Source: Patescibacteria group bacterium (lineage in GTDB: Bacteria > Patescibacteriota > Minisyncoccia > Moranbacterales > UBA2206). Taken from it: a stretch of DNA of 64,000 nt. Numbering within the stretch: position 1 is the first letter of the stretch; the number at the start of each line of letters is the position of its first letter. The notes under the pieces are model-generated. The model had not been told where the DNA came from and did no database searches. It was given only the letters and a program-made list of their open reading frames with translations. A program made the position numbers and the translations under genes. Where the stretch lies: NCBI GenBank assembly GCA_030837625.1, contig JAUPKF010000002.1:168-64167 (forward strand), given 5' to 3'. Shown here piece after piece: positions 134 to 29,491 of this stretch.

Positions 134-160
134 AAAAAGGCTTGATAAAGCCTTTTTTTG
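134..160. terminator. bidirectional rho-independent terminator hairpin (aaaaaaggcttgataaagccttttttt)
   Basis: perfect hairpin flanked by A-run and T-run, lies between tRNA genes. Confidence 0.6.
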
Positions 161-232
161 AGCGGGTAACGGGAATCGAACCCGTCTCTCGTCCTTGGCA
201 AGGACGTATAATAGCCACTATACGATACCCGC
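161..232 (-). tRNA. tRNA-Gly(GCC)
   Basis: hand-folded cloverleaf: acceptor gcgggta/tacccgc, anticodon loop ttGCCaa, T-loop ttcgatt. Confidence 0.85.
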
Positions 233-397
233 CTGCCGCATTTCCTTTTGATATTAAGTCCATAATACTCCATCAATAGATAATCCATAATCGGAGAGTA
301 ATAACTTTATATATCGTTAGGAAATGCCGCAGGCACGCCCATATCATTAGGAAATTTCGCGGGCGCGCCTGCTGCTTTTCATTTTTTAACTGTTTTT

Positions 398-473
<76 letters not shown>

Positions 474-477
474 GTGT

Positions 478-549
478 GGATCCTATAGGACTCGAACCTA
501 TGACATCTTCGATGTAAGCGAAGCGCTCTACCAACTGAGCTAAGGATCC
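478..549 (-). tRNA. tRNA-Val(TAC)
   Basis: acceptor ggatcct/aggatcc, anticodon stem cttcg/cgaag with loop ctTACat, T-loop ttcgagt. Confidence 0.8.
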
Positions 550-556
550 GAATATT

Positions 557-636
557 TAACGAATTGGGTAGACGAAGCGCTCTAGCCCCAGCCATAGGCT
601 GGTCAGCCTATGGCTGAAATTGAGCTAAGGATCCAA
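557..636 (-). pseudogene. truncated tRNA-Val-like 5' fragment with a 12-bp-stem hairpin inserted in the D-loop
   Basis: reverse complement reads ggatccttagctcaat[ttcagccataggctgaccagcctatggctg]gggctagagcgcttcg...; it shares the 5' acceptor/D and anticodon-stem 5' strand with the adjacent tRNA-Val(TAC) but lacks a 3' half. Confidence 0.5.
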
Positions 637-642
637 GAAGTG

Positions 643-727
643 TGCGAACGAGAGGACTTGAACCTCCATGGGATTGCTCCCACTACCACCTCAAGGTAGC
701 GCGTATACCAAGTTCCGCCACGTTCGC
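643..727 (-). tRNA. tRNA-Leu(GAG), class II with long variable arm
   Basis: acceptor gcgaacg/cgttcgc, anticodon loop ttGAGgt, variable arm tgggagcaatccca, T-loop ttcaagt. Confidence 0.85.
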
Positions 728-7519: not shown

Positions 7520-9160
7520 TTATTCGACCCAGTACTTTTTTTTCATAAATTCTTCTTCTTTTTTATTCTCCTCCTCGATCTTATTCTTAGCCTGGTTTCG
7601 CAAGGTTCCGATATCTTCTTTATTCAATTCCGCGGATATTTTCAGCAAATCTTTTTTATTGTTCAGTTTGGGATCGTCAATAACTTTCATGAGCAAAACA
7701 TCCAAAATAGCTCCGATTTTCGGCCCGGGCCCCAGCGCCAATTTTTTTATCAAATCATCGCCGTTTATTTTCAGCTGTTTTACGGAAATGGCGTCACGCG
7801 AAACTTTTTCCACCATAAATTTGAAGTGACGGAGTTTATACGGCACGGCTTTTGGCACGCCCGAGCCAAGCCGATCAGCAATCCTGACGTCGATCAAATC
7901 ATTGATATTTTCCAAGCCGACTTTGCGAACCACCCGCCGCACACCGGCTTCCCCCACTTCATCAACGTTATAATAGAACATGTGATTTTTGACCAAAAGC
8001 GAAACCTTGTCGATTATATTTCTTGAAAACCTTAACCGCTCCAAAATCCTTTCAGCCATTTTCGCTCCGGCGTATTCGTGGTTATAAAAGGTCGCGTTTT
8101 CGCCCGCGCCTCTCTTAGTTTTCGGCTTGCCAATATCGTGCAGAAGCGCCGCCAGCCGCACTTCCAACTTTTCCGACGGACATTTTTCCAAACTAGCCAC
8201 CAAGTGTTTATAAACAGTATTATACGGGCCATAGTAATGATGATGGCTTTGAGTCACGCCGTATCCGGCTTCGATTTCGGGAATGATATATTGAAGCAAT
8301 CCTGTCTCATGAAGCAATTCAATCCCCCGCGCCGGAGCGGGAGATAGAATAATTTTCTCCAGTTCGTCTTTAATTCTTTCCGCTGAAATATATTTTAAAT
8401 TGGAAGCGTTTTTATTTATGGCCGCGAAAGTCTCGTTATCAATTTTCCAGCTTTGTATTTCTTTTTTATCATTTTTTAATTTTGCATTGTCATTTCGATT
8501 TTTTCGGCCAGAGGCTGATCCGCCTTTGGCGGAGATTTTTGATTTTTGATTTTCTAAAGTTACAGCAAACCTCACGGCGCGCATCATCCTCAACGCGTCT
8601 TCATCAAATCTTTCGTTCGCATCCCCTACTGCTTTAATAATTTTATTACTCAAATCCTCCCGCCCATTGTAAGGATCAACTATTCTATATTCACTCTCAT
8701 TCTCTTTAATTTGTTCCGCTTTAGCGAGTGCAATAGCGTTTATCGTAAAATCCCTTCTCGACAAATCTTCTTCCAAGCTTTTGGCAAACTTAATCTCATC
8801 CGGATGCCTCTTATCACTATATTTTGACTCAACCCGATAAGTAGTTATTTCAACTATGATGTACTTGTCTTCTTCTTTGCTGTTTTGGATTTTGTTTTTT
8901 GGATTTTGAGATTTATTTGGAATTTGGAATTTTGGATTTGGGATTTTAACAGCTACTGTCCCAAACTCATTCTCATACACACTATCCGGAAATAATTTCA
9001 AAATCTCCTCCGGCTTCGCGCTTGTCGCCACATCCCAATCTTTCGGAATTTTATCCAATAGCATATCCCGCACGCATCCGCCCACGACAAACGCCTCAAA
9101 GCCGTTTTCTTCAAGTTTTCCAATCACTTCAACAACATACTTTGGAATTTTTTTGATCAT
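7520..9160 (-). CDS. cca: CCA-adding tRNA nucleotidyltransferase / poly(A) polymerase family with HD domain, carrying in-frame repeat insertions
   Basis: N-term GGCVRDMLL...DWDVAT (PolyA_pol head), HD region HDIGKP; start set at the internal Met (MIKKIPKY, 9160) because the upstream 33 codons overlap the neighbouring gene; the segments NPKFQIPNKSQNPKNKIQNSKEE and KNDKKEIQSWKIDNE are encoded by GAATTT-family repeat DNA. Confidence 0.85.
   Translation of the reverse strand: MIKKIPKYVVEVIGKLEENGFEAFVVGGCVRDMLLDKIPKDWDVATSAKPEEILKLFPDSVYENEFGTVAVKIPNPKFQIPNKSQNPKNKIQNSKEEDKYIIVEITTYRVESKYSDKRHPDEIKFAKSLEEDLSRRDFTINAIALAKAEQIKENESEYRIVDPYNGREDLSNKIIKAVGDANERFDEDALRMMRAVRFAVTLENQKSKISAKGGSASGRKNRNDNAKLKNDKKEIQSWKIDNETFAAINKNASNLKYISAERIKDELEKIILSPAPARGIELLHETGLLQYIIPEIEAGYGVTQSHHHYYGPYNTVYKHLVASLEKCPSEKLEVRLAALLHDIGKPKTKRGAGENATFYNHEYAGAKMAERILERLRFSRNIIDKVSLLVKNHMFYYNVDEVGEAGVRRVVRKVGLENINDLIDVRIADRLGSGVPKAVPYKLRHFKFMVEKVSRDAISVKQLKINGDDLIKKLALGPGPKIGAILDVLLMKVIDDPKLNNKKDLLKISAELNKEDIGTLRNQAKNKIEEENKKEEEFMKKKYWVE
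8455..8560. repeat. GAATTT/GGATTTT low-complexity repeat inside the cca coding region
   Basis: attttttaattttgcattgtcatttcgatttt...gatttttgatttttgattttctaaag. Confidence 0.55.
8878..8952. repeat. GAATTT/GGATTTT low-complexity repeat inside the cca coding region
   Basis: gctgttttggattttgttttttggattttgagatttatttggaatttggaattttggatttgggattttaacagc; the gctgtt...aacagc ends are inverted. Confidence 0.65.
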
Positions 9161-9245
9161 AGCATCTTCATTATCCCTCTCTCCCATAATCGGGAGGGAT
9201 GTCCAACGTACTCGTTGGACAGAGAGGGCACAACCGCTGCTGGTA

Positions 9246-10010
9246 TTATACACTACCATCCACCGACGAAAAATTCAAATAATTTTCCCGTTCTATCGAA
9301 CTCCACACCATCTCAAACATCGACCGATACGTTGCAACTACATCCCCGCTTTCGATCACCACCGCCATTGGCGTGTCTTTGTAGGAAATGATTCCGACTT
9401 TGTTTCCAAAGATCACGTTATCGGTTGGAAGCATCCTCTCATTAGGCGCGATTTTGAATTGATGATTCTCGGAAGCATTGGTTTTGGCAAACTCGATTGA
9501 TTTTTCGTCACCTTGTAAAATCTCCCTGATCAGAACTTTCTCTTTCTTCACCACGTTCAGATATTTATTCACTTGCCGCAACACCCCCGGAGTTATTCGC
9601 CCGATTGATCCATAAAACAAAATTTCTTTTTCCTTGAATATCTCATCCCATAGCTTGGCCACGTTTTCTTCGCCTTGATAATACACCACTTTGGGCTTTT
9701 CTTTCTGGGAATTATATATAGCCATCAATTCTGGCAAATTTTGTTGGATTATCTCTTGCTTTTCTTCGTGTTCCTCCAAAAGTCTCTGCGGTGACTGAGC
9801 GGTATAGATAGCTTTTACTTTTTTAGGAAGCAGTGTCACTAGCCCCTTCATCCGCAATTCTTCCAAAAGGAGATAGGTAGTCGGCCGTTTTGTCCCGGCC
9901 TTAATCGAAATAGCCGGCACCGACCCGCTTCCCATCTGCAAAAGAGCCACATAAACCTTGGCTTGTTTTTCGTTTAGTCCCAGATGTTTCAGGGCTTCAA
10001 ATAGTTCCAT
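9246..10010 (-). CDS. TrmB-family transcriptional regulator
   Basis: N-terminal winged HTH (LGLNEKQAKVYVALLQMGSGSVPAISIKAGTKRPTTYLLLEELRMKGLV), TrmB-type C-terminal domain. Confidence 0.75.
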   Translation of the reverse strand: MELFEALKHLGLNEKQAKVYVALLQMGSGSVPAISIKAGTKRPTTYLLLEELRMKGLVTLLPKKVKAIYTAQSPQRLLEEHEEKQEIIQQNLPELMAIYNSQKEKPKVVYYQGEENVAKLWDEIFKEKEILFYGSIGRITPGVLRQVNKYLNVVKKEKVLIREILQGDEKSIEFAKTNASENHQFKIAPNERMLPTDNVIFGNKVGIISYKDTPMAVVIESGDVVATYRSMFEMVWSSIERENYLNFSSVDGSV

Positions 10011-10589: not shown

Positions 10590-11048
10590 TGCTGGAAAAG
10601 CGAACAACTATTCTCGACCTTTTCGCCGAAAATGAACTCAAGATCAGCGAGTTATATGCCATATACTCCCGGAGATTTCCCGCTCATAAGGATTTCTGGA
10701 AAAAAACTTTCCGGTGAAGAAATTGTTCACTCTCAAGAAATTAAAGCGATGAAACAAGACAACTTTGAGAAGAATTTTCAAGAGAATAACTTTACCCGCG
10801 GCATCATCAAGTATGTCAGCAATTATGTGGACGAACAGCTCGAAGCCGCCAACAGCAAAAAACTTACCGTCGAAGAAGCGCTAAACATCGCTCTCCGCGT
10901 CGAGCAGTCTATGCTGGAAAAAAAATGTTTCGAAATTTTCATCCCAAACCACTCCACTCTCAAAGACGTGCTGGATCGTCTGAATAAAGACACCGACCGC
11001 CACGCCAATATGCTTCGTAAAGAACTGGAAAAAATTGCTAAGAAGTAA
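10590..11048 (+). CDS. hypothetical protein, possibly frameshifted at an A7 run (10590-10715 frame 1; 10632-11048 frame 2)
   Basis: the ATG at 10590 opens a 42-codon ORF (MLEKRTTILDLFAENELKISELYAIYSRRFPAHKDFWKKTF) that ends just after ggaaaaaaac, where the listed 138-aa ORF continues in the +1 frame. Confidence 0.45.
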   Translation, partial: CWKSEQLFSTFSPKMNSRSASYMPYTPGDFPLIRISGKKLSGEEIVHSQEIKAMKQDNFEKNFQENNFTRGIIKYVSNYVDEQLEAANSKKLTVEEALNIALRVEQSMLEKKCFEIFIPNHSTLKDVLDRLNKDTDRHANMLRKELEKIAKK

Positions 11049-11057
11049 ATCAACTTG

Positions 11058-11129
11058 TGTCCCCGCCAAGAATCGAACTTGGATCCAGAGCTTAGGAGTC
11101 TCTTGTTCTATCCGTTGAACTACGGGGAC
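11058..11129 (-). tRNA. tRNA-Arg(CCT)
   Basis: acceptor gtccccg/cggggac, D-arm gttcaacggatagaac, anticodon loop ctCCTaa, T-loop ttcgatt. Confidence 0.75.
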
Positions 11130-11142
11130 AGTAAATTCTTCG

Positions 11143-11215
11143 TGGACCCGAGGAGACTCGAACTCCTTACCTCCGCAATGCGAATGCGGCGCTCTACCAG
11201 ATGAGCTACGGGCCC
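11143..11215 (-). tRNA. tRNA-Ala(CGC)
   Basis: acceptor gggcccg with G3:U70 identity pair, anticodon stem ccgca/tgcgg with loop ttCGCat. Confidence 0.85.
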
Positions 11216-11324
11216 AGAACTAACGTGGACGATACTGGACTCCCCGCCTGCCGCGAAATCCCACATAGTCTCCTGTCAGTAAATTAGTTTTCTATCCTAA
11301 ATAATCAATAAGAATCTTTTTGGA

Positions 11325-11396
11325 GCGGCATTTCGGGCAGGGAACCAGTGACAGCCCGAATGTGAATCGAGCGCTCTAATTTATCCCCCCACCAAT
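11325..11396 (-). pseudogene. degenerate tRNA-Val(CAC)-like 3' portion (outer copy) adjacent to the intact tRNA-Val(CAC)
   Basis: reverse complement ggggggataaattagagcgctcgattcacattcgggctgtcactggttccctgcccga has an anticodon arm ctcga/ttCACat/tcggg but a degraded T-arm and acceptor; it parallels the intact outer copy at 28078-28150. Confidence 0.45.
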
Positions 11397-11400
11397 TGGG

Positions 11401-11474
<74 letters not shown>

Positions 11475-11534
11475 AATTGGTGGGGGGACGAGCTGAGCTA
11501 ATCGTCCAATAAATAGTACTGACACTTTTGATTG

Positions 11535-27952: not shown

Positions 27953-27988
27953 CAGGGGTCTGTAGCTCAGCTCGTCCCCCCACCAATT
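27953..27988 (+). pseudogene. 5' part of an outer tRNA-Val(GAC)-like gene (acceptor + D-stem 5' strand) interrupted in its D-loop
   Basis: gggtctgtagctcagct then cgtccccccaccaattgg leads into the inner tRNA; together with 28078-28150 it folds as a tRNA with a 6/7-paired acceptor. Confidence 0.45.
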
Positions 27989-28062
27989 GGGTGTTTAGCT
28001 CAGCTGGTTAGAGCGCCACATTGACATTGTGGAGGTCACTGGTTCGAGTCCAGTAATACCCA
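27989..28062 (+). tRNA. tRNA-Val(GAC), nested inside the D-loop of an outer tRNA-Val-like gene
   Basis: acceptor gggtgtt/aataccc, anticodon stem ccaca/tgtgg with loop ttGACat, T-loop ttcgagt; flanked by the 18-bp perfect inverted repeat ccccccaccaattgggtg / cacccaattggtgggggg. Confidence 0.85.
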
Positions 28063-28077
28063 CCCAATTGGTGGGGG

Positions 28078-28150
28078 GATAAATCAGAGCGCTACATTGA
28101 CATTGTAGAGGTTTCAGAGGTTCGAGTCCTCTCACGCCCACAGGAAGTTT
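28078..28150 (+). pseudogene. 3' part of the outer tRNA-Val(GAC)-like gene (D-stem 3' strand, anticodon arm, T-arm, acceptor 3' strand)
   Basis: ataaatcagagcgc tacattgacattgta(anticodon GAC) gaggtttc agaggttcgagtcctct cacgccc a. Confidence 0.5.
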
Positions 28151-28165
28151 TTTAAAAAAATGATT

Positions 28166-28458
28166 GGGACCATAGCTCAGCGGTAGAGCAGGCGGCTCAA
28201 AAAATATTTAGGGCTGTTTGAGAAGTAATTTTCAAGCGAATATCTGTCAAACTCGGGGAAACCTAAGGCGCCAAAAGCGCTACGGCAATCCCGAGCCAAG
28301 CCCCGACGCGTGTCGTGGAAGGTGTAGAGACTAGACGGCAGACATCCCGATATCATCGGGATGAAGGGATAGTCCAGCTCCCAAACTCGAGAGGGGTTGC
28401 GAAAGCAATAGTGAGAAGCATAACCGCTTGGTCGCTGGTTCGAATCCAGCTGGTCCCA
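28166..28458 (+). tRNA. tRNA-Met(CAT) (elongator-type or tRNA-Ile2 precursor) interrupted by a group I intron; exons 28166-28197 and 28419-28458
   Basis: exon1 gggaccatagctcagcggtagagcaggcggct + exon2 cataaccgcttggtcgctggttcgaatccagctggtccca folds into a canonical cloverleaf with anticodon CAT; G1:C72, so it is not an initiator. Confidence 0.8.
28198..28418 (+). other. group I intron (221 nt) in the anticodon loop of tRNA-Met(CAT), inserted after U33
   Basis: 5' exon ends in U and the intron ends in G; conserved group I core elements R (gtgtagagactagacgg) and S (gaagggatagtccag) pair gacta/tagtc to form P7. Confidence 0.75.
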
Positions 28459-28501
28459 CAGATAAAAAACTCGACTTTTTAAAAAGCCGAGTTTTTTAAA
28501 T

Positions 28502-29491
28502 TTATTTTTTTCTTCTCCTTCCGTGAAACGCTTGATGGACTTCTTTGAGCTGCTTGTTGGTAACGTGGGTGTAAATTTGGGTGGTGGTGATGGAAGAATG
28601 GCCGAGCATAGCTTGCACCGAGCGGATGTCGGCGCCATTAATCAGTAAATCCGTAGCAAAAGAATGGCGAAGCGTGTGCGGATGGACATCTTTGACAATT
28701 CCGGCTTTGGCGGCGTAATATTTGACGATTCTCTGGACGGAGCGGGGGGTTAATCTTAAACCAGCGTTATTATCCGTAGGGGTTCGATTAATCGAACCCC
28801 TACTTTTATTTTCGAATTTTGCCAGTCCTTTAACATCTCTCACAAACAAAGCCGGATCAATATCCATCCGCTTATCCAGATACGTCTCCAGCGCTTTCTT
28901 GGCACTTTCTGAAATAAAAACCACCCGAATTTTGTCGCCTTTTCCTCGCACGGAGAGTTCCCCGGATCCCAAATTCAACTTATCCCGATTGATGCTGACG
29001 AGTTCCGATACTCGCATTCCGGCCGAAAAAAGCATCTCCAGCATCGCTCGGTCGCGAAGCGACTTAAAATCAATTCCAGACGCCGCCCCGATAATCCTTT
29101 CCACTTCTTCCGGTTCCAAAAATTCAATTTCGCGCGCCGGAGATTTCCCAATCTCGACCTTTTCCGCGATCAATGTCTTAATGTCCCGCTTTGCCAGATA
29201 TTTAAGAAAGCTTCGAAGGGCTATAACGTAATAGCCCTGGGTAGCTTTTTTCAAGCCTTTTCCATTCTCATCTTTGTAGCGGCTCAGATGCAAGCGAAAG
29301 TTTCTTACCAATTCATCTGTAATTTCGGACGGCTTCGCTATTTTTGCCCAATCAAAAAACACCCGCAAATATCGACTATAATTTTCAATAGTCTTTTGCG
29401 AACGGTTCTTTTCTATTTCAAGATATTCCAGAAACTGAGTTTTTAGTCGCTCAATTCCACTTTTTTGTATCTTTTCTGTTTCATGTTTCAT
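28502..29491 (-). CDS. xerC: tyrosine site-specific recombinase (XerC/XerD-like integrase)
   Basis: catalytic region HTLRHSFATDLLINGADIRSVQAMLGHSSITTTQIYTHV; N-terminal SAM-like core-binding domain; 3' end lies 44 bp from the tRNA-Met 3' end. Confidence 0.85.
   Translation of the reverse strand: MKHETEKIQKSGIERLKTQFLEYLEIEKNRSQKTIENYSRYLRVFFDWAKIAKPSEITDELVRNFRLHLSRYKDENGKGLKKATQGYYVIALRSFLKYLAKRDIKTLIAEKVEIGKSPAREIEFLEPEEVERIIGAASGIDFKSLRDRAMLEMLFSAGMRVSELVSINRDKLNLGSGELSVRGKGDKIRVVFISESAKKALETYLDKRMDIDPALFVRDVKGLAKFENKSRGSINRTPTDNNAGLRLTPRSVQRIVKYYAAKAGIVKDVHPHTLRHSFATDLLINGADIRSVQAMLGHSSITTTQIYTHVTNKQLKEVHQAFHGRRRKK

Follow-up and report, generated by a model that had tools for sequence, protein, structure and literature searches.

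The gene for SegB, a GIY-YIG enzyme of phage T4, lies in a tRNA cluster; the enzyme cleaves tRNA genes at their T-psi-C motif and undergoes intronless homing with its tRNA neighbours (PMC2330249), and in phage T6 it drives tandem amplification of a tRNA-plus-segB unit (PMC13096335). Characterized GIY-YIG homing endonucleases join the catalytic domain to a separate DNA-binding part, and the Ssn proteins are single-domain GIY-YIG nucleases that cut single-stranded DNA beside cognate hairpin repeats (NTS/SRM) and are encoded in a repeat-ssn-repeat architecture (PMC11893778, which also gives a comparison with REP/IS200). In bacteria of the candidate phyla radiation (CPR), rRNA genes carry insertions that are not intron-like, some of which encode GIY-YIG proteins, in a study that does not treat tRNAs (PMC11270868). 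Integrative elements classically leave partial tRNA duplicates beside intact tRNAs (PMC9897764), and an archaeal 5′-fragment case is described for Caldiarchaeum tRNA-Thr (PMC3293823). Here, we analyzed a 64,000-nt stretch of DNA (the window) from a Patescibacteria group bacterium (GCA_030837625.1, contig JAUPKF010000002.1, positions 168-64,167 of the forward strand), in which a partial tRNA-Val(UAC) gene, interrupted in its D-loop by a palindrome, lies 5′ of an intact tRNA-Val(UAC) gene on the minus strand (locus A). We consider it likely that locus A is the relic of a tRNA-gene replacement module, and we see it as related to known kinds: intronless homing, mobile-element-derived tRNA fragments and nuclease-plus-hairpin-repeat systems.

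Locus A lies in a minus-strand tRNA array 3′ of the gene for ribosomal protein L19, in the order Leu(GAG), Val(UAC), Phe and Gly (coordinates in Table 1). Its displaced part, at 634-569, comprises the first ~36 nt of tRNA-Val(UAC), split at D-loop position 17/18 by the 30-nt palindrome; an earlier note on this DNA had recognized a hairpin in the D-loop from the sequence. The 3′ end of the fragment falls in or near the anticodon, a break like those in the loci L006, L013 (ending …TTTA) and L016 (ending …CTTA) of related genomes. The earlier note had described the acceptor and D arm as the same as in the functional gene; 14 nt (GGATCCTTAGCTCA) and 12 nt (TAGAGCGCTTCG) are indeed exactly shared, but the D-loops differ. 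The shared 14-mer occurs twice in the window against 0.00 expected in 100 shuffles. The palindrome can form a 15-bp stem, and the 81-nt stretch has a minimum free energy of -33 kcal/mol (z = -4.45). Alternatively, it can be read as two tandem 6-bp hairpins, and this is the form conserved in related copies. The 3′ half is missing, as had been stated: there is no T-arm or 3′ acceptor strand in the fragment, and no second copy of the Val T-arm and acceptor near locus A. A covariance-model search, of the kind that the note had proposed, gave no match of the Rfam tRNA model to 550-641 at E ≤ 10, in the whole-window scan or in a focused scan, and the fragment does not score as a four-arm cloverleaf. 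No Rfam family covered the fragment or the hairpin; the sole matches were sub-threshold microRNA-like hits on the stem. A metagenome scan for variants of the locus with another or a larger insert (CCTTAGCTCAATTN{14,44}GGCTAGAGC) returned 0 matches.

The source is a metagenome-assembled genome (MAG) and the region contains short direct repeats, which could favor a collapsed or chimeric read join from the adjacent gene. In a Logan assembly from another run (L001, SRR24011133), 330 nt across fragment, spacer and gene are identical, and the same architecture occurs in dozens of unrelated assemblies and in one finished isolate genome. Because the independent assembly is identical, the fragment is not an assembly artefact of the adjacent gene, an explanation to which we assign practically no weight.

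To place the two copies in time, we used the syntenic RluD-L19-tRNA region of relatives and of 80 GTDB species representatives, almost all of them Moraniibacteriota or related CPR MAGs. The source MAG is close to Candidatus Moranbacteria/Moraniibacteriota, and its L19 protein is 83% identical to that of RIFOXYA12_FULL_44_15. The order Leu(GAG) then Val(UAC) is conserved in 64 loci, and the distance from Leu to the start of the intact Val gene is 5-31 nt in 19 compact relatives (≤24 nt in 18 of them). In the window, it is the fragment that starts 7 nt after tRNA-Leu(GAG), with the intact Val(UAC) gene starting 92 nt after it. Val 5′ fragments in L011, L017, L029 and L076 also start 5-11 nt after Leu. 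Without the palindrome, the D-loop of the fragment reads CAATT..GGCTAGAGC, the same as in the intact orthologue of L003/L004, whereas the D-loop of the intact window gene, CAGTTGGTA (CAGTTGGTAGAGC), differs from those of both the fragment and the L004 orthologue. Because of its 7-nt position after Leu and its orthologue-type D-loop, the fragment represents the remains of the resident ancestral Val(UAC) gene, and the intact gene is the later arrival. This reverses the polarity of the earlier note, in which the fragment was a paralogous partial copy of the functional gene. Locus A also provides a presence/absence contrast between related genomes, in that Val(UAC) is fragmented in the window and intact in L004.

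All three tRNA-Val genes of the window are tied to D-loop-interrupted copies, as had been noticed before: the Val(CAC) and Val(GAC) genes lie inside the D-loops of outer genes of the same anticodon (loci B and C). In each case, the D-loop insert consists of inverted repeats around an inner intact tRNA-Val, and at locus B a second insert of 99 nt occupies the T-loop of the outer gene. Once the inserts are taken out, the outer sequences agree with intact Val(CAC) and Val(GAC) genes of relatives. The outer gene at locus C has decayed, with loss of the D-loop GG (G18/G19) and with acceptor mismatches. Judged by these matches, the inner genes at B and C are the later arrivals and the outer genes ancestral. 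The inverted repeats at B and C are identical and include a perfect 13-nt repeat (TCCCCCCACCAAT / ATTGGTGGGGGGA), and the inner Val(CAC) and Val(GAC) genes are identical save one D-loop base and the anticodon arm, a mosaic identity that suggests gene conversion. Removal of the inner tRNA between the two copies of CCAATTGG would leave the B/C insert as a perfect palindrome, an 'empty' D-loop hairpin like that at locus A.

This arrangement was also present in relatives. In all, perfect inverted repeats of ≥12 nt flank 10 intact tRNAs, for Leu(GAG), Leu(UAG), Phe, Pro, Val(CAC) or Val(GAC), and 8 of these 10 are nested in a same-anticodon gene. Around a Ser(CGA) gene, the inverted repeat is of this type but shorter (9 nt). 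The repeat cores are either CCCCGCACCA / TGGTGCGGGG or those of a sub-family, TCCC(C)…GGGATAAA, which includes loci B and C. The tRNA-proximal part of the repeats is variable between loci, with complementarity kept. In L004, an inner Phe between the inverted repeats TCCCGCACC…GGTGCGGGATAAA is nested in the orthologue of the intact Phe gene of the window, and in L006 the nested or displaced tRNAs are Leu(GAG) and Val(UAC).

The earlier note had proposed an insertion or duplication mechanism specific to Val-tRNA. Within the window alone, 3/3 Val genes are affected compared to 0/9 other tRNA genes (eight called by ARAGORN and a tRNA(CAU) split by an intron). We then compared ARAGORN-called tRNAs with the same loci in which intact tRNAs were masked, and counted fragments on the same strand, with the same anticodon and within 160 nt, in 83 non-redundant related loci, almost all from Moraniibacteriota. 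A same-anticodon fragment was found beside 60 of 501 intact tRNAs, in 39 of the 83 loci. Fragments near an intact tRNA lay by a gene of the same anticodon in 72 cases and not in 39. The counts per intact tRNA were 16/79 for Leu(GAG), 9/70 for Val(UAC), 6/56 for Phe, 5/33 for Leu(UAG), 4/6 for Pro, 4/6 for Ile, 4/28 for Arg(CCU) and 3/31 for Cys, and fragments were also seen for Ser, Gly, Ala and Leu(UAA). Of the named relatives, L004 is the closest, and there tRNA-Phe is nested and Val(UAC) intact. Specificity for Val is not borne out, as equivalent fragments occur beside 15 of 22 isoacceptors in relatives; a process directed at tRNA genes rather than chance, the broader part of the proposal, is supported by the three Val loci. 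Because their inverted repeats are identical and their inner tRNAs near-identical, B and C can be seen as related events, and the restriction to Val within the window probably reflects these two related events and one at A. Half-tRNA pairs 240-650 nt apart in relatives (Phe, Met) are a separate matter from the displaced fragments; the sequences between the halves are probably group I introns, as confirmed for the tRNA(CAU) of the window.

We scanned all open reading frames (ORFs) of the related loci for GIY-YIG domains by profile search and recovered 21 ORFs, of which 19 are non-redundant. Fifteen distinct ORFs of 65-90 aa were aligned, and Tyr, Tyr, Gly, Arg, His and Glu are invariant. Four representatives matched Pfam PF01541 with 49-61 bits over the catalytic domain only, and the nearest solved structures are UPF0213 BH0048 (E = 5.5e-18) and SLX1. 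Each of the 19 non-redundant ORFs belongs to a tRNA array, has the orientation of the tRNAs and is within 231 nt of a tRNA or fragment; as background, 8% of the sequence lies within 100 nt of a tRNA. In 12 of the 21, a same-strand tRNA starts -9 to +66 nt from the ORF end. From these features, the ORFs look like active nucleases tied to tRNAs.

In the best-preserved layout, a hairpin-bearing 5′ fragment is followed by a GIY-YIG ORF that ends a few nucleotides from, or overlaps, the start of the intact tRNA. The ORF occupies the position equivalent to the locus A spacer, between a fragment and an intact gene with the same 5′ end, in L068 (Leu(GAG)), L016 (Leu(UAG), where the fragment ends in the anticodon loop), L008 (Leu(CAG)) and L062 (Asn). 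In L068, for example, GCCCAGGTGGCGGAATT[CCTGCCTGCCGGCAGGCAGG]GGTATACGCGCAGCGCG is followed by the ORF and then by intact Leu(GAG) with the same 5′ half. The Leu(CAA) locus L091 has the same layout with an ORF, but the acceptor stems of fragment and intact gene differ. In L017, L022 and L029, an ORF and a new Val(UAC) are inserted into the old Val(UAC), and in L039 and L079 an intact Ile is followed by the ORF and then by a hairpin and the Ile 3′ half. Signs of decay were found in outer copies (L006 Leu, with a mutated anticodon loop; L029 Val, without one anticodon-stem strand) and in ORFs (truncated in L016, L079 and L090).

The locus A spacer holds ACCCAATT, which resembles the inverted-repeat core CACCAATT, and the spacer also resembles the sequence just 5′ of the new tRNA-Val in L034 (TCCAATTACAAATAAATATTC) and L006 (…TTAAATATTAT). 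By analogy with these loci, we infer that the spacer is a remnant of the left part of an inserted module. That module may have been nuclease-linked or of the inverted-repeat type. Because the window is without a GIY-YIG ORF, a nuclease acting at locus A is inferred by analogy with the relatives.

We then asked if the association holds outside the sampled loci. A profile of the 15 ORFs retrieved >5,000 proteins named 'GIY-YIG nuclease family' from many phyla, and four were chosen by protein similarity alone. Each of them adjoins a tRNA on its own strand and is accompanied by a duplicate of that tRNA with a hairpin in it. In L091, from Kerfeldbacteria, a Leu(CAA) 5′ fragment with CCTGCCGGCAGGCAGG is followed by the ORF and then by the intact gene, and at the metagenome locus L094 the ORF lies between an old Cys copy containing CCCGCCTTCGGCGGG and the intact gene. 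At the Patescibacteria MAG locus L092 the tRNA is Gln, and its old pieces carry hairpins in three loops (D, anticodon and T). The fourth module, at tRNA-Cys of Melioribacter roseus (L090 1310-1975; CP003557, ~2.297 Mb), comes from a non-CPR isolate with a finished genome. An old Cys copy that carries CCCGCCTCAGGCGGG is followed there by the intact Cys gene and the ORF, after which come a partial Cys, in which this hairpin appears again, and a second, truncated ORF. Because 4/4 homologues picked by protein similarity repeat it, the association of nuclease, tRNA duplicate and hairpin is general and extends beyond CPR. A search of a phage collection with a GIY-YIG protein gave one marginal match (E = 1e-3) and no sign of phage-borne modules there.

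REP/BIME and Rickettsia palindromic elements are multicopy repeats, short and able to form hairpins, that are tolerated in frame within protein genes. The palindrome of locus A belongs to a family of two tandem 15-nt hairpins, TCNSCC-NNN-GGSNGA, with one further copy in the window, in frame in the CCA-adding enzyme ORF (7520-9259; Table 1). This copy falls in an insertion of 34 aa that the 72%-identical CCA-enzyme orthologue of L004 lacks. Other family copies are at L013 4328-4357, L013 10642-10671 and L085 1216-1245; a Leu 3′ fragment adjoins one of them, and a Pro 3′ fragment another. A second palindrome, CCTGCCTGCCGGCAGGCAGG, occurs at ~32 sites, about half of them in loops of displaced tRNA copies and the rest kilobases from any tRNA. 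D-loop inserts in displaced copies are placed between nucleotide 17 and G18 (window A, L061, L068, L016, L023, L033, L045, L049), and T-loop inserts at or by the C56/R57 junction (window B, L061, L034, L033, L026, L041, L085). As a dispersed repeat, the hairpin strongly favors the loops of redundant tRNA copies; it is not a structural part of the tRNA. It shares with the REP/BIME and Rickettsia elements the many short hairpin-forming copies and the tolerance inside genes, as in the CCA-adding enzyme. The repeats here are 15-30 nt long and favor positions 17/18 and 56/57 of displaced tRNA copies, and no tyrosine transposase of the REP-associated kind was seen with them.

The apparent transcription unit of the array, from a promoter-like site (1289-1261) to a terminator-like site (158-133), encloses the fragment. 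This could point to a function at the RNA level, with the hairpin as an intron-like element and the fragment as an alternative 5′ exon joined by splicing to the 3′ half further on, in the style of split or intron-containing archaeal tRNAs, or else with the fragment as a processing or regulatory leader of the array. Inserts in D, anticodon and T loops, as in archaeal introns, and long stems around the inner tRNAs whose sequence differs by locus would be in line with such a role. However, the fragment has neither a 3′ half of its own nor a tRNA score, and its product would merely duplicate an existing tRNA. The hairpin is fully paired without a bulge-helix-bulge, the same repeat family is found in a protein ORF, and outer copies have decayed (outer B and C, L006 Leu, L029 Val). 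The tRNA splicing endonuclease is not known from bacteria. We regard a function at the RNA level as very improbable; locus A is an inert relic as far as we can see, with no present function to report. Two narrower readings of the hairpin were dropped: a bulge-helix-bulge intron, given the continuous 15-bp stem without bulges, and an intrinsic terminator, as no T-run follows the hairpin.

A tyrosine recombinase gene of the window, together with the partial tRNA duplicate beside an intact tRNA, might recall the scar of integrase-mediated integration or excision at a tRNA gene, in which the attachment (att) site is duplicated. Here, however, the duplicated part is a 5′ half with a break in the anticodon loop and not a 3′ segment, and the copies are 19 nt apart. 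The recombinase gene is 28 kb from locus A, and the intervening gene in relatives is a GIY-YIG nuclease and never an integrase. An att scar has, in our judgement, hardly any chance of being the explanation, marginally less even than an RNA-level function. As a separate observation, this gene (phage-integrase family, XerC/D-like; 28502-29491, minus strand) adjoins the intron-containing tRNA and lies ~360 nt from locus C.

The sequence of events that we propose for locus A is as follows. A selfish module, either a nuclease ORF with a tRNA or an inverted-repeat-flanked tRNA as at B and C, would have entered the resident gene near the anticodon loop. A nuclease-made break would be repaired by recombination, from a module-bearing copy (homing) or via short homologies, and the latter route would duplicate part of the tRNA. 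Disruption of the resident gene, presumably single-copy judging from CPR genomes in general, would be tolerated, and the module would persist, since a functional tRNA with that anticodon comes with the module. The ORF and the old 3′ half would later have been lost, leaving 19 nt, and the redundant fragment would have gained the hairpin repeat. Decay of the ORF would be as expected for homing-endonuclease genes after fixation. More speculatively, hairpins in tRNA loops, including the loop recognized by SegB, may mark or occlude the target sites of the nuclease.

Several observations weigh against this proposal. With a length of 19 nt, the spacer cannot prove an origin in either an ORF or an inverted-repeat element, and its similarities to L034, L006 and the repeat core are short. 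No GIY-YIG ORF or remnant was found in the 64-kb window by tblastn, where the low-E matches are tRNA sequence read through by over-extended query ORFs. The predicted nucleases have no DNA-binding domain, unlike characterized homing endonucleases. The Ssn consensus HGTCWYN(0-2)YYVSBRHN(0-5)WNVSBRGN(0-2)RNCYNB is not enriched, with 8 matches in 1.29 Mb compared to 2-4 per shuffle (five shuffles), and none of the matches is at the hairpins in question. Hairpins are also not obligatory to the process, as the displaced fragments of L006, L013 and L011 have none. Finally, the acceptor, T-arm and anticodon-stem sequences of the intact gene equal those of the fragment and the orthologue, which a purely local partial duplication fits equally well.

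Such a local event would be a plain partial tandem duplication of the tRNA 5′ half, by slippage or unequal recombination, with the palindrome inserted later by chance. The identity of the acceptor 5′ strand and the anticodon-stem strand in fragment and intact gene, the lack of a nuclease ORF in the window and the occurrence of the palindrome family away from tRNAs all agree with it. Slippage, however, leaves the 19 nt of unrelated sequence and the differing D-loop of the fragment unexplained, and break points cluster in tRNA loops. Moreover, the layout with a GIY-YIG ORF precisely where locus A has its spacer recurs independently in ≥10 tRNA species and reaches other phyla. We consider a local duplication unlikely and retain the relic of a replacement module as our reading of locus A. 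On a wider scale, single-domain GIY-YIG nucleases, GC-rich hairpins and spare tRNAs may together form an undescribed class of selfish module that overwrites essential chromosomal tRNA genes from CPR to Ignavibacteria, one variant of which would be a tRNA at the tip of a mobile hairpin inserted in the D-loop of the replaced gene, as at B and C. We put this forward tentatively, as possible rather than likely.

SegB is among the closest of the described systems. As with SegB, the GIY-YIG ORFs of the relatives stand directly beside tRNAs, with partial or tandem tRNA duplicates around them (such as the five 92-nt repeats of L039). SegB is a phage protein, whereas the ORFs here are chromosomal in CPR and Ignavibacteria and lie inside a disrupted copy of the tRNA that they accompany. 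At 65-90 aa and with the catalytic domain only, they also lack the modular organization of SegB-like homing endonucleases. Nothing in the SegB system corresponds to the GC-rich hairpin repeats of the disrupted copy, and the window locus has no ORF. The Ssn proteins are similar in being small single-domain GIY-YIG proteins whose genes are flanked by short dispersed GC-rich hairpins, and the order hairpin-nuclease-hairpin is present in L017, L039, L090 and L092. In contrast to Ssn, and to the hairpin-flanked ORFs of the relatives, the window locus keeps the hairpin alone; the SRM consensus is not enriched here, and tRNA genes are not mentioned in PMC11893778. The tRNA duplication and replacement context of single-domain GIY-YIG proteins appears to be new.

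In partial tRNA genes made by the integration of mobile elements, including the Caldiarchaeum tRNA-Thr model (PMC3293823; PMC9897764), a 5′ fragment likewise precedes an intact same-anticodon tRNA, and mobile DNA separates the two; the fragments are non-functional by-products in those cases as here. Those cases involve integrases or recombinases and kilobase-sized elements, whereas the intervening unit here, where there is one, is a nuclease ORF of ~250 nt, and the genes are broken in tRNA loops. The rRNA-gene inserts of CPR come from the same lineage and also split structured-RNA genes at the tops or bases of stem-loops by short inserts with occasional GIY-YIG ORFs. In the rRNA genes the interrupted gene stays the functional copy, whereas here a second, intact tRNA copy accompanies the interrupted one. 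Locus A itself does not conform to a tRNA, to an integrase att scar, to a bulge-helix-bulge intron or split tRNA, or to the Ssn consensus. In the full-text literature, we found no description of nested or displaced CPR tRNA genes or of tRNA-linked small GIY-YIG modules, which is not proof of absence.

If the proposal is true, a spare gene copy would be a third route by which homing-type nucleases colonize an essential gene, besides the self-splicing intron and the intein. It would explain why CPR tRNA sets are littered with fragments and nested genes that confuse annotation, and it would explain the exchange and replacement of tRNA genes between lineages, all three Val isoacceptor genes of the window having been replaced. 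It would also give a possible biological context to thousands of uncharacterized, tRNA-adjacent 'GIY-YIG nuclease family proteins'. With the module at tRNA-Cys of Melioribacter roseus, an isolate with a finished genome, the idea is testable at the bench in a tractable system.

Table 1. Features of loci A, B and C and their surroundings in the window.
Feature	Position	Strand	Basis
tRNA-Leu(GAG), upstream neighbour that fixes the ancestral fragment position	642..727	-	ARAGORN; Leu(GAG)->Val(UAC) synteny in 64 loci
Displaced tRNA-Val(UAC): 5′ acceptor strand, D-stem 5′ strand and D-loop start, GGATCCTTAGCTCAATT	618..634	-	17/17 match to intact Val(UAC) of L003/L004
30-nt palindromic insert TCAGCCATAGGCTGACCAGCCTATGGCTGG (= TCAGCCATAGGCTGA-CCAGCCTATGGCTGG), D-loop position 17/18	588..617	-	Fold; dispersed repeat family
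Remainder of displaced gene, GGCTAGAGCGCTTCGTCTA: rest of D-loop, D-stem 3′ strand, anticodon-stem 5′ strand, degenerate anticodon loop (GGCTAGAGCGCTTCG-TCTA)	569..587	-	Sequence comparison
19-nt spacer CCCAATTCGTTAAATATTC between dead fragment and new gene	550..568	-	Sequence
Intact canonical tRNA-Val(UAC), replacement copy	476..549	-	ARAGORN; Rfam RF00005 73.5 bits
tRNA-Phe	398..472	-	ARAGORN, Rfam
tRNA-Gly	160..232	-	ARAGORN, Rfam
Palindrome-family copy TCCGCCAAAGGCGGATCAGCCTCTGGCCGA, in frame in CCA-adding enzyme ORF 7520-9259	8504..8533	-	Repeat search
Locus B, outer ancestral tRNA-Val(CAC) split by two inserts	11226..11507	-	Outer gene matches L012 Val(CAC)
Locus B, inverted repeats of D-loop insert	11475..11490 and 11379..11400
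Locus B, inner intact tRNA-Val(CAC)	11401..11474	-
Locus B, T-loop insert of outer Val(CAC)	11243..11341
Locus C, outer ancestral tRNA-Val(GAC) with D-loop insert	27956..28140	+	Outer gene matches Val(GAC) of L048, L058, L084
Locus C, inverted repeats of D-loop insert	27973..27988 and 28063..28084
Locus C, inner intact tRNA-Val(GAC)	27989..28062	+

Some further observations concern the same loci. The intron-split tRNA(CAU) of the window, of Met or Ile2 type, is at 28166-28459 on the plus strand; its group I intron matches RF00028 with 71 bits at 28188-28394, the gene has no ARAGORN call, and its halves match the Met(CAU) genes of relatives. In L039, five tandem 92-nt repeats (10990-11458), each a tRNA-Ile 5′ fragment with the hairpin CTCGCCACGGCGAG, lie 5′ of the intact tRNA-Ile, and the last codons of the GIY-YIG ORF are encoded by the D-arm and hairpin of the old tRNA. 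The GIY-YIG frame extends 9-15 nt into the 3′ tRNA at L017 3536-3545, L022 11048-11057, L029 10938-10947 and L092 1837-1851, so that in these modules the stop codon is inside the tRNA and ORF and tRNA are very tightly coupled. A ~100-nt element with the terminal inverted repeats GCCTGCGGCATTTCC … GGAAATGCGGCAGGC occurs at 231-334 (minus strand) in the Phe/Gly gap of the window, as the T-loop insert of the outer Val(CAC) (minus strand) and at L004 10645-10742 in the Val/Phe gap. It has no Rfam match, and a small RNA or a miniature mobile element are candidates for its identity.

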